The notes under the pieces are model-generated. The model had not been told where the DNA came from, ran no database searches, and worked only from the letters and a program-made list of their open reading frames with translations. Shown here piece after piece: positions 35,209-38,490 of a stretch of DNA of 64,000 bases. Made by a program: the position numbers and the translations under genes. Source of the DNA: an uncultured Acidobacteriota bacterium (GTDB lineage: Bacteria; Acidobacteriota; Vicinamibacteria; Vicinamibacterales; CAVVIG01); the NCBI GenBank assembly GCA_963757655.1, contig CAVWSQ010000001.1:1970996-2034995 (forward strand), written 5' to 3'. Positions within the stretch are counted from its first letter, which is position 1. Each line of letters opens with the position of its first letter.

Positions 35209-38200
35209 ATGGCCGCGCCAGACAAGGTCCTGAAGCAAACGTATGCGTGGTACCGCACCTCAATCACGCACGTGCTCGACGCCAGCGGTCTGACTCCCGC
35301 CCAGCGCGCCCAGGTCGAACCGCTCATCTGGCAGACACTGGGCATCCTCAACGCCGCCGTACCGCCGGTCAATCCGGATCTTTCCGATTTCAAGGACAAC
35401 GGTGGCGCCGCCGAATCGCTCGCGATCGCGGCCACCGTCGTCGCCGAAGTGCTGGTCGCGCTCGGCTACGTGCAGCAGGCAGTGGCGGCGCTGGGAGGCG
35501 GCGGCAACCCGGCCGCGGCGCTCGCCGTCATCGGTCCGGTACTCGAGCAGGTCGATCGCCTGTCGCATCTGCAGGCGGGCAGCCGCTATCCGAGCGCCTT
35601 CTCGATCGGCAAGATCCTGCTGATGCTCAGCGGCGACGCGCAGGCCGACCCGCCCGCCAATCACGAGGCGGACAAACTGGCCGCGCTGCTCGGTGCGGTG
35701 TCGGCGGCCGACGTTGCGAACGCGCAGGCTGCGCTCGGCATCGTCAGCCTGCTGATCGGGAGCATGATCGATCGCTCGTTCACGGCTCCCAGCGCGAACG
35801 CGGCCGCGGGTTGGGTCACGCAGGCGCTGCCCGACTTCACCGGTCATCCCAAGCTCACGCTGACTGCCGCCGGCGGCCTTGGCGGCAGTCTCGAAATCAA
35901 TCCGGGTCCGCCCAGCGCGATCAAGGCGGCGCTCAGCCTGGCCGTCAATCAATCGAAACCGATCGACGGCACCAGTGTCACGCTCGGCCTGACCGGGAGC
36001 GCTGGGGTCGCGGTGCTGGTCCCAGTCGTTCCACCTGGCGCGGTGCAGGTGAGCGGCGACTACGCGCTCGGCATCCAGCTGAAGCGGAGCAAGGCGAACG
36101 GCGCGCTGGTGATTGGCAGCGACGAGCTCGGCGTCAAGCTGTCGATCGGCGAGCTCGGCATCTCGATGCTCCTGAAGAACGGAGCGCCGGCGCTGCAGTT
36201 CTTCGCGCACGACGCCAGGGCGACGATCAGGCCGAGCGACGGATTCCTCAAGCTGATTCTCGGCGACGGCATCGAGGTGGGGCTCGATGTCACCGCGGAA
36301 GCCGACGTGGCCGGCAAGCTGCGGCTCGTCAACGGCACCGGCCTGCACGCCAGCCTCCCGGTGCCGACGTTGCCGACCGGCCCATTCCAGTTGCAACTGA
36401 TCAACCTCGGGCTCGATCCGATCGGCGGCAGCTTCGCGCACCTGCAGGTCGAAGTCTCGGCCTCGTTCGGCGTCGAGCTCGGGCCCTTCGCCGGAACGGT
36501 CGATCGTCTCGGCGTGCTGCTCGACCTCGACGTCGAGAACGCCGGTCATCCGATCAGCTTCGCGTTCAAACCGCCAAATGGCATCGGCCTGTCGCTCGAC
36601 GCCGGCGTCATCAAAGGCGGCGGCTACCTGTCGGTGGACGAGAACGGCTACGCGGGCATCCTCGAGCTCAAGTTCCTCGCCGTCGACGTGAAGGCGATCG
36701 CGATCCTCAACACCCATTCGGAAGTTGGCTTCTCGCTGCTGCTGCTGATCTTCGGCCAGTTTCCCGCGATCCAGCTGTCGTTCGGCTTCACGCTCACCGG
36801 CATCGGCGGCCTGATCGGCGTTCAGCACACCGCCAGCCCTCCGGCCTTGTCGCAGGCTCTCAGCGCAGGACAGCTGGACGCGGTACTGTTCCCCGACAAT
36901 CCGGTAGCCAACGCACCGCAAATCATCACCACGCTGCGCACGCTGTTTCCGGTCAAGGCTGGCGGCTTCATCATCGGCCCGATGCTCGAGCTGGGCTGGG
37001 GCACACCGAGCCTCGTCACCGTGCGTCTCGGCCTGCTGATCGAGGCGGGCCAGTTCACGCTGCTCGGCCAGGCGATCATCCAGATCCCGCCGCTGGTGTC
37101 CTCCGATCTCGCCCTGCTCTACCTGCGGCTCGATTTCGTCGGCTCGGTGGTGTTCGATCCGCTGCGCATCGCGTTCGATGCCAAGTTGATCCACTCGCGC
37201 ATCGCGCTGATCACGATCACCGGGCAGTTTGCGTTCCGCGCCGAGTTCGGCGATCACCCGACGTTCCTGATCAGCGCCGGCGGCTTCCACCCGCGCTTCA
37301 AGGAGATTCCTTCCGACATCCCCTCGCCATTCGATCGGGTCGGCGCGAGCCTCGACATCGGCATCGTCGGGATCGAGCTGAAGGGCTACTTCGCGATCAC
37401 GTCGGCCACCATCCAGGCCGGCGCGTCGCTGCGGGCGTGGGCCGACATCGGCATCGCCAGCATCGAGGGCGGCTTCGGCTTCGACGCCATCTGTTACCTG
37501 ACGCCGAAGTTCTATTTCGAGCTGGACATCTACGCCTACCTCGACGTCCACGTGTTCGGGATCGATTTTGCGTCGATTCATCTCGACGGCACGCTGGCCG
37601 GCCCGGGACGGTGGCACATCGCCGGCAACGCCAAAGTGCATACGCCGTGGCCGCTGCCGGACTTCTCCGTGCACGTGGACGAGCATTTCGGGACCGACCG
37701 CGACACCCCGCAGATTCGGGTGAACGTCGCCGATCAGCTCGCCGGTGAAATCGTCAAGACCGCGAACTGGAGTGCGCAGCTACCCAGCGGAGGCGACGGC
37801 TTCGTGACCCTGGCGGACATCAAGGCGGGCACCGACGTCCTCGCGCATCCGCTCGGCACGCTGGTGTTCCAGCAGAAGCTGGTGCCCTTCGAGCTGCGCA
37901 TGGCCAAGGCGAGCGGCAGCCAGATCGACGGCGCCAACGAGTTCTTCGCTGGGACGCTGCAGCTGACGCAGGATGGACAAGCGGTGCCCAGCGCGCTGCA
38001 CGCCGAGGCGCGCGGCGATTTCTTCGCCGCCGCCCAGTTCCTCGAGATGTCCCAGGACGACAAGCTGGCGAAGCCGTCGTTCGAATCGTTCACCGCCGGC
38101 TACGAGCTGGGCGACGACAACTACGACATCGGCGACGTCATCGAAGAGACGTTGAACTACGAGGAAGCGGATCTCGGCGCCGTGGCGGTGCCGAAGCGCT

Positions 38201-38490
38201 CGAGACGTATCGGCCTCGGCGCCTATGCCGAAGCCACGCATGGCGCCCTGCTGCGCTTCGGCGCCGCTGGCCGTTCGAACTATCGCGATCGCGCGCTGAC
38301 CCAGCCCGCACAGTCCACCGCGATGCGCGTGGATCCGGCCCCGGTCACCGTGGCCAGCAAGGATTCGATGGCGGTGGCGACGGGAGCGCAGGTCTACACC
38401 AGCGTCTGGCGGGCGCATCAGGCGCGGGACGCCGCCGGCCGCGTCGAGGCGGCGAGCCTCGCCGTCGTCGAAATTGCGGAGATCGCATGA
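35209..38490 (+). CDS. giant uncharacterised protein 1 (1093 aa), DUF6603-like by recollection
   Basis: Uninterrupted ORF with strong GC3. GAGG lies 6 nt upstream of the ATG. No signal peptide. Long Gly/Leu/Val beta-rich core with GGYLSVDENGYAGILELKF, QLSFGFTLTGIGGLIGV and LISAGGFHPRF. Confidence 0.9.
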   Translation: MAAPDKVLKQTYAWYRTSITHVLDASGLTPAQRAQVEPLIWQTLGILNAAVPPVNPDLSDFKDNGGAAESLAIAATVVAEVLVALGYVQQAVAALGGGGNPAAALAVIGPVLEQVDRLSHLQAGSRYPSAFSIGKILLMLSGDAQADPPANHEADKLAALLGAVSAADVANAQAALGIVSLLIGSMIDRSFTAPSANAAAGWVTQALPDFTGHPKLTLTAAGGLGGSLEINPGPPSAIKAALSLAVNQSKPIDGTSVTLGLTGSAGVAVLVPVVPPGAVQVSGDYALGIQLKRSKANGALVIGSDELGVKLSIGELGISMLLKNGAPALQFFAHDARATIRPSDGFLKLILGDGIEVGLDVTAEADVAGKLRLVNGTGLHASLPVPTLPTGPFQLQLINLGLDPIGGSFAHLQVEVSASFGVELGPFAGTVDRLGVLLDLDVENAGHPISFAFKPPNGIGLSLDAGVIKGGGYLSVDENGYAGILELKFLAVDVKAIAILNTHSEVGFSLLLLIFGQFPAIQLSFGFTLTGIGGLIGVQHTASPPALSQALSAGQLDAVLFPDNPVANAPQIITTLRTLFPVKAGGFIIGPMLELGWGTPSLVTVRLGLLIEAGQFTLLGQAIIQIPPLVSSDLALLYLRLDFVGSVVFDPLRIAFDAKLIHSRIALITITGQFAFRAEFGDHPTFLISAGGFHPRFKEIPSDIPSPFDRVGASLDIGIVGIELKGYFAITSATIQAGASLRAWADIGIASIEGGFGFDAICYLTPKFYFELDIYAYLDVHVFGIDFASIHLDGTLAGPGRWHIAGNAKVHTPWPLPDFSVHVDEHFGTDRDTPQIRVNVADQLAGEIVKTANWSAQLPSGGDGFVTLADIKAGTDVLAHPLGTLVFQQKLVPFELRMAKASGSQIDGANEFFAGTLQLTQDGQAVPSALHAEARGDFFAAAQFLEMSQDDKLAKPSFESFTAGYELGDDNYDIGDVIEETLNYEEADLGAVAVPKRSRRIGLGAYAEATHGALLRFGAAGRSNYRDRALTQPAQSTAMRVDPAPVTVASKDSMAVATGAQVYTSVWRAHQARDAAGRVEAASLAVVEIAEIA

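Follow-up and report, generated by a model that had tools for sequence, protein, structure and literature searches.

A DUF6603 protein heads a conserved four-gene cassette in an uncultured Acidobacteriota bacterium

The locus and its reading frames

We analysed a stretch of 64,000 nucleotides from an uncultured Acidobacteriota bacterium (GenBank assembly GCA_963757655.1, contig CAVWSQ010000001.1, positions 1,970,996 to 2,034,995 of the forward strand), which is referred to below as the window and from whose first letter coordinates are counted unless another contig is named. The analysis centred on a gene for a large protein of the DUF6603 family, here called gene A, and on the three genes that follow it and with which it forms a four-gene cassette (A-B-C-D) on the + strand. 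Gene A is an ATG-initiated open reading frame (ORF) of 1093 codons that occupies exactly positions 35209-38490, and a GAGG ribosome-binding site was read from the sequence at 35200-35203, 5 nt 5' of its start codon. It is followed by gene B (38487-41930; 1147 amino acids, aa), whose start overlaps the stop codon of gene A in an ATGA, by gene C (41977-46896; approximately 1640 aa), and by gene D (46916-48820; 634 aa), the last gene of the cassette. Each of genes B, C, and D encodes an orphan family.

The window has a G+C content of approximately 66-67%, so long spurious ORFs are frequent in it, and ORFs of 833 and 808 codons in other frames overlap gene A. The gene A frame was identified as the coding one from three features: its third-codon-position G+C, which lies between 0.83 and 0.93 along the frame from 35400 to 38400, the GAGG site, and 195 homologous database proteins of 1080-1105 aa that aligned over 100% of the length from the same N-terminus. 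The ORF is therefore confirmed as a real gene.

The composition of the encoded protein changes along its length. Residues 1-200 contain 21% Ala and 12% Leu, residues 201-389 contain 15% Leu and 14% Gly, and residues 390-950 contain 12% Leu, 11% Gly, 8% Ile, and 8% Phe, so that the region from 201 to 950 as a whole is rich in Gly, Leu, Val, Ile, and Phe. A preliminary description of this DNA had quoted seven peptides, all of which are present in the translation, and its outline of an Ala/Leu-rich stretch (1-200) followed by a core rich in Gly and hydrophobic residues matches these measurements. It had also set apart an acidic C-terminal domain. The last 143 residues (951-1093) are indeed weakly acidic, with a net charge of -5, but they do not stand out in acidity from the other regions: the core carries -25 and the whole protein -37.

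Protein A begins with MAAPDKVLKQTYAWYRTS and has no hydrophobic leader. Visual inspection and hydropathy of the N-terminus gave no sign of a signal peptide, and there is no N-terminal membrane anchor. The grand average of hydropathy (GRAVY) is +0.33, the 88th percentile among the long ORFs of the genome, a set obtained with a crude filter by codon-position G+C that also underlies the cysteine percentiles given below. Protein A is the largest high-GRAVY ORF that does not contain multiple strongly hydrophobic 19-residue segments of the kind expected for transmembrane helices. The GRAVY values of proteins B, C, and D range from -0.1 to -0.28.

Membership and extent of the DUF6603 family

The Pfam family DUF6603 (PF20248) matched protein A at E = 5.1e-115 and 385.3 bits, compared with a cut-off of 27. 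The match covers profile positions 5-501 of 502 and lies at residues 390-950 (36376-38058), and membership was also confirmed by a search of the genome itself. The assignment had been proposed in the preliminary description and was borne out by this profile search; the outcome that would have refuted it was not obtained, as the DUF6603 match is present and the modelled fold corresponds to no known enzyme or transporter. On sequence grounds, protein A is thus confirmed as a genuine full-length member of the family.

We then assessed the size of the family with an exhaustive phmmer search against 1.84 billion cluster representatives. Protein A retrieved 4154 clusters (50% identity) at E <= 1e-3 and 2500 clusters at E <= 1e-30, most members being 1100-1200 aa long. 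The distant relatives align with protein A from approximately residue 230-340 to the C-terminus only. From the extent of these alignments, the conserved unit (approximately residue 230 to the C-terminus) exceeds the Pfam model, and the N-terminal 230 residues or so appear to be specific to the subfamily.

Protein A agrees fully with PF20248, but the family label itself gives no function. The homologues are named solely "DUF6603 domain-containing protein" or "hypothetical protein", and neither "DUF6603" nor "PF20248" is mentioned in the literature that was searched. Proteins A-D had no match in NCBIfam, PADLOC (at E up to 0.1), or PHROGs. Among PDB sequences, nothing was found for protein A with either the single sequence or a 56-sequence profile.

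The A-B-C-D cassette

The same A-B-C-D set follows gene A in Rhodoferax koreense, in a Myxococcota-labelled metagenome-assembled genome (MAG), and in Paraburkholderia, with unrelated flanks. To survey the cassette more broadly, tblastn was run with A-D of both cassettes found in the present genome (the second is described below), one genome per species was taken, and 78 loci were kept. Every surveyed locus that extends far enough downstream of gene A has the four genes on a single strand in the order A-B-C-D. The phyla represented are Pseudomonadota, Acidobacteriota, Gemmatimonadota, Actinomycetota, Bacteroidota, Chloroflexota, and Myxococcota. At one locus, in a Chitinophagaceae MAG (L086), homologues of C and D were noted upstream and not downstream of A, which may represent two adjacent cassettes or a rearrangement.

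None of the partner proteins could be linked to a described family. Pfam gave no match for B, C, or D, including when 40 orthologues of B were scanned singly, and the PDB gave none by single sequence or by profile (nothing below E = 0.03 for A-D). No homology was detected among B, C, and D themselves. Protein D has 1320 homologues, none of which is named or has a Pfam domain. The AlphaFold2 model of protein B is fairly confident, with a predicted local distance difference test score (pLDDT) of 80.6 and a predicted template modelling score (pTM) of 0.58, and a Foldseek search of this model against the PDB found no fold match (best E = 0.24). On the basis of the model, protein B is a candidate set of new folds.

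Protein B carries an invariant motif, Y-x-F-x-P-W-x-R-x-G, at its extreme N-terminus (B residues 1-18, 38487-38540). A longer form, Y-x-F-(L/M)-P-W-x-R-R-G-L, is nearly invariant across phyla and lies within the first 5-20 residues. The position of the motif at the very start of the protein suggests that it may serve as a docking or processing site.

When compared with the Rhodoferax orthologue, the homology of gene C runs in frame 1 to 45753, in frame 2 from 45821 to 46642, and then in frame 1 again, with the second switch at approximately 46633. The nominal frame of gene C is open throughout. An intact orthologue of 1622 aa is found in Rhodoferax koreense, and the two compensating frameshifts in the window are probably assembly errors.

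Several features at the borders of the cassette were also recorded. Two ORFs upstream of gene A, at 34813-35097 (94 codons) and 34889-35068 (59 codons, Cys-rich), were considered as cassette members and rejected, being not conserved in the 78 related loci. Downstream lies a 166-bp palindromic element (48817-48982) with 58-nt arms of 79% complementarity. It shares four bases with the end of gene D, among them the stop codon. The element has six copies in the genome (C1 twice, C2 twice, C3, and C6) with 97.6-100% identity and, given these near-identical copies, behaves like a miniature inverted-repeat transposable element (MITE). In Paraburkholderia sp. (JBNNWQ010000015.1, 1252-9564), genes for a trypsin-like, an S8, and a C1 peptidase and a PG_binding_1 gene lie directly upstream of the cassette. 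This arrangement parallels the subtilase fusion of a longer DUF6603 relative (P0361, described below).

Distribution and mobility

The genome contains a second A-B-C-D cassette on contig 3 (213629-227549, - strand), which encodes proteins of 1128, 1055, 1833, and 613 aa. Compared with the corresponding proteins of the window, all four show 30-33% identity. The two copies differ in their closest relatives. For protein A of the window, these are mostly Betaproteobacteria, together with MAGs labelled Myxococcota, Steroidobacteraceae, and Blastocatellia, at 61-73% identity, whereas the nearest named relatives of the second protein A are labelled Acidobacteria/Acidobacteriota and Bacteroidota. This difference is indicative of horizontal transfer.

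The family is sporadic among related organisms. Six of 41 close relatives carry it, as do 16 of the 401 genomes sampled from the phylum (4%; 13 of 231 genera), and all 14 control genomes lack it. By tblastn, DUF6603 was located on 13 large plasmids, of which four were haloarchaeal, five were from Streptomyces, and one each was from Nocardia, Gemmatirosa, Paraburkholderia, and Rhizobium. A corresponding search of 50,697 phage records found none, and a phage origin was rejected on this account. In two annotated plasmid regions that were inspected, those of Rhizobium and Halalkalicoccus, the neighbours of the DUF6603 gene differ in size, and the co-directional ones are nearly all annotated as "hypothetical protein". 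On the plasmid of Halalkalicoccus sp. CGA53 (NZ_CP144124.1), a 1214-aa DUF6603 gene lies between genes for hypothetical proteins of 915 and 1137 aa, and just downstream are a 3124-aa protein with a BGTF surface domain and a lamin-tail-domain protein.

Architecture and conservation of protein A

Protein A was modelled with AlphaFold2 from a 56-sequence alignment covering two subfamilies. At a mean pLDDT of 67.8 and a pTM of 0.39, the secondary structure of the model is usable and its global topology is not. By DSSP, the model has eight helices at residues 6-189, within the Ala/Leu-rich head (residues 1-200, 35209-35808), followed by 38 beta-strands at residues 215-827 (35851-37689). Many of the strands are 10-17 residues long and the turns between them mostly comprise 2-5 residues, and the series is broken by a conserved three-helix insert at residues 544-579. 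The remaining C-terminal alpha/beta region (residues 840-1093, 37726-38487) is conserved family-wide and partly modelled at pLDDT below 50; the alignment with the paralogue in the same genome extends up to approximately residue 1080. The model thereby reproduces the helical head and very large beta-rich core that had been proposed from the sequence.

The hydropathy of the strand profile alternates, with a mean Kyte-Doolittle value of +2.3 on one face and -0.7 on the other, from which the predicted sheet is amphipathic over its whole length. The preliminary description had suggested a beta-solenoid as one possible form of this core. No internal repeats were detected when nine segments of the alignment were compared as profiles with hhalign, where only the deliberately overlapping ends matched. 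The absence of tandem repeats argues against a repeat solenoid or beta-helix, and this suggestion was dropped.

Conservation is strongest in the block at residues 451-600, which holds FKPPNGIGLSLDAGVIKGGGYL, the Gly-rich hydrophobic GFSLLLLIFGQFPAIQLSFGFTLTGIGGLIGV, and IIGPMLELGWGTP. Within it, residues 520-539 are nearly invariant, yet they are modelled at pLDDT below 50. Of the 85 invariant columns in the 56-sequence alignment, 46 are Gly or Pro. Few of the invariant columns are polar, no catalytic motif was recognisable among them, and neither a Walker A nor an HExxH motif is present in any of proteins A-D. From this predominance of Gly and Pro and the lack of such motifs, protein A looks structural.

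Within the subfamily, identity to protein A is 0.47-0.88 per 40-residue block with approximately 0% gaps, and this block-by-block conservation indicates that a hypervariable tip of the toxin kind is absent from the four-gene form. The helical heads of the two subfamilies show no detectable homology to each other (hhalign probability 18%). Additional domains were found in longer DUF6603 relatives (P0293, P0361, P0330, and P0384 were examined). Some carry a PGAP1-like alpha/beta-hydrolase or a subtilase (Peptidase_S8, in P0361) far N-terminal of the core, and others have Kelch propellers C-terminal of it.

Fold comparisons

Foldseek searches of the protein A model against the PDB returned weak matches only, with template modelling scores (TM-scores) of 0.04-0.30 and root-mean-square deviations of 16-45 A; for the best of them these values were 0.1-0.3 and 16-29 A. 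The matched structures were Campylobacter MOMP, LptD, the PapC/FimD ushers, MtrB, Deinococcus SlpA, Occ porins, and the ApoB100 beta-belt. No AsmA/TamB-like protein was among the top 50 matches, and nothing meaningful was found among the viral predicted structures of BFVD. The comparison gives a weak indication that the modelled sheet resembles, in its local style, sheets that lie in or on lipid, a shared fold not being established. The preliminary description had also named a barrel or a membrane-inserting sheet, and on this weak local resemblance either form is possible.

Like the outer-membrane beta-barrels (porins, LptD, PapC/FimD, MtrB), protein A is predicted to have long antiparallel strands, short turns, and an alternation of hydrophobic and polar residues. 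Unlike them, it has no signal peptide, and its family also occurs in monoderms and archaea. Membership in the barrel class was rejected, as there was no Sec signal, no match to a closed-barrel fold, and no restriction to organisms with an outer membrane. An AsmA/TamB-like lipid transporter was likewise rejected from the lack of an N-terminal anchor and of any such match in Pfam or among the top 50 of Foldseek; Pfam gave no AsmA/TamB, DUF490, porin, or autotransporter match in protein A.

The ApoB100 beta-belt shares with the modelled protein A a very large amphipathic sheet, although the Foldseek matches (9bdt, 9ea7, and 9e9r) have TM-scores of only 0.04-0.13 and there is no sequence similarity. 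Autotransporters have a similar domain logic, in that longer DUF6603 relatives place a subtilase or alpha/beta-hydrolase N-terminal to the beta core. However, protein A has neither a Sec signal nor a Pfam autotransporter domain, and its beta region is not a 12-strand barrel but extends over approximately 600 residues. Protein A is also, unlike autotransporters, always accompanied by three partner proteins and found outside diderms as well.

Discussion

The explanation that we favour, at a probability of roughly 45%, is that protein A serves as the core subunit, a hydrophobic beta-sheet, in an undescribed complex of four proteins, and that this complex probably contacts a lipid membrane. Gene A heads a self-contained, horizontally mobile cassette whose products would most likely assemble into one large complex. 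That proteins A-D form a single complex is the firmest part of this explanation, and we consider it quite likely. The lack of a catalytic signature suggests that protein A is probably the structural core, and proteins B, C, and D would make up the remainder of the machine. The 38-strand amphipathic meander of this leaderless, hydrophobic protein could present a very large hydrophobic sheet face, and this face may touch or enter a bilayer, either that of the producer or that of a target. Contact with or insertion into the bilayer is the more tentative part and is put forward only as a possibility. Specificity or activity could be supplied by the helical head, which is exchanged between subfamilies, or, in other subfamilies, by the fused hydrolase, protease, or Kelch domain.

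Several observations weigh against this explanation. Co-inheritance is the sole evidence for complex formation. The global fold of protein A is uncertain (pTM 0.39), and the Foldseek matches, with TM-scores of at most 0.3, show generic beta-meander character only. Amphipathic strands are just as usual in soluble beta-sandwiches, which bury their hydrophobic face. The cysteine content, which falls at the 11th-39th percentile, is low and not extreme, and cysteine depletion was discarded as a sign of export for being too weak. The cassette contains no signal peptide, transmembrane helix, secretion gene, or lysis gene, which leaves unexplained how protein A would reach any membrane beyond the inner face of the producer's own.

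One rival explanation is that the cassette encodes an extracellular particle for toxin delivery or attack on cells, working like Tc toxins or tailocins, that would be assembled in the cytoplasm and released by lysis or by an unlinked exporter, with protein A as its membrane-penetrating part. Tc (ABC) toxins consist of several very large, leaderless, co-encoded proteins and are patchy in distribution and horizontally spread, and the A-D cassette resembles them in all of these respects. The fusion of relatives to hydrolase, subtilase, or Kelch domains and the secreted proteases that adjoin the Paraburkholderia copy would also suit an aggressive particle. However, the cassette consists of four orphan families where Tc toxins have three known ones, and a variable toxin tip enclosed in a shell is missing from it. 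Neither sequence nor fold searches gave a match to TcA, TcB, TcC, RHS, sheath, tube, or baseplate proteins, genes for immunity, lysis, or variable cargo are absent from the four-gene form, protein A is conserved over its full length within the subfamily, and the family does not occur in the phage records. We therefore regard a toxin particle as unlikely.

The named systems of this kind were also examined singly and rejected. For a Tc complex, there was no VRP1/TcdA, TcB, or TcC (RHS/YD) match to A-D in Pfam or NCBIfam and no Tc or RHS match to A or B by Foldseek. For contractile injection systems and tailocins, there was no PHROG match for A-D, no phage record, and no BFVD match. Polymorphic toxins were set aside because the cassette has no hypervariable tip and consists of four conserved genes only, with flanks that are unrelated between loci.

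Another explanation is that the proteins build a structural assembly in the cytoplasm, for example a cage or a scaffold, or else a lipid-handling complex with a physiological role, in which the sheets of protein A would be buried in subunit interfaces or hold lipid. The missing export signal fits this arrangement, as do the strong purifying selection on four full-length proteins, the four-gene form without cargo or immunity genes, and the occurrence of the family in diderms, monoderms, and archaea alike. The weak matches to the lipid-binding beta-belt of ApoB100 point in the same direction. A housekeeping-like role is, however, ill-suited to a family that is present in 4% of the genomes of the phylum and spread on plasmids, and the subtilase and hydrolase fusions of relatives suggest an aggressive or degradative function. 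On balance, such an assembly seems rather unlikely.

The sporadic spread across phyla, with two divergent copies in one genome, would also fit a module for intracellular abortive-infection defence, in which a sensor complex would drive protein A into the membrane of the producer upon phage attack. All four proteins are leaderless and would therefore be cytoplasmic, and protein A is hydrophobic, both of which are in keeping with this idea. It is nevertheless improbable. No PADLOC match was found for A-D even at the permissive threshold given above, and known anti-phage defence was rejected on that basis; an NTPase, a nuclease, and other domains typical of defence are missing as well. The flanks of five loci consist of ordinary metabolic, transport, and protease genes with no recognisable defence genes, and approximately 4500 residues of protein would be a very costly investment.

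The idea that protein A is an ordinary beta-protein of the envelope, whether a barrel in the outer membrane or a lipid bridge of the AsmA/TamB kind, is largely refuted, since the amphipathic strands and the best Foldseek matches (porins, LptD, ushers, and MtrB, none with a TM-score above 0.3) are set against a protein with no signal peptide, anchor, or Pfam match for such a role and a family carried by Actinomycetota, Chloroflexota, and haloarchaea, which have no outer membrane assembled by the beta-barrel assembly machinery (BAM).

Judged by its database entry, protein A is a regular member of a catalogued DUF; as a system, the cassette is outside every described kind that we considered. The DUF6603 domain was already known from Pfam, and the window adds a clean example of the cassette and a genome with two divergent copies. 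Each copy of the cassette commits approximately 4500 residues of protein. Seven bacterial phyla retain it in intact form, and haloarchaeal plasmids carry DUF6603 genes in other gene neighbourhoods. The family is large, with thousands of clusters at 50% identity, yet the four proteins all lack a studied relative, a solved structure, and any mention in the literature that was searched. It is possible, though doubtful, that these genes represent an undescribed bacterial and archaeal machine made of four fold families without known relatives, in which the giant amphipathic sheet of protein A would enter or remodel membranes independently of known secretion, injection, and pore-forming systems. If the products of the cassette do form a membrane-active complex, it would be a further class of its own, next to Tc toxins, contractile injection systems, and autotransporters, and it would bring new protein folds with it.

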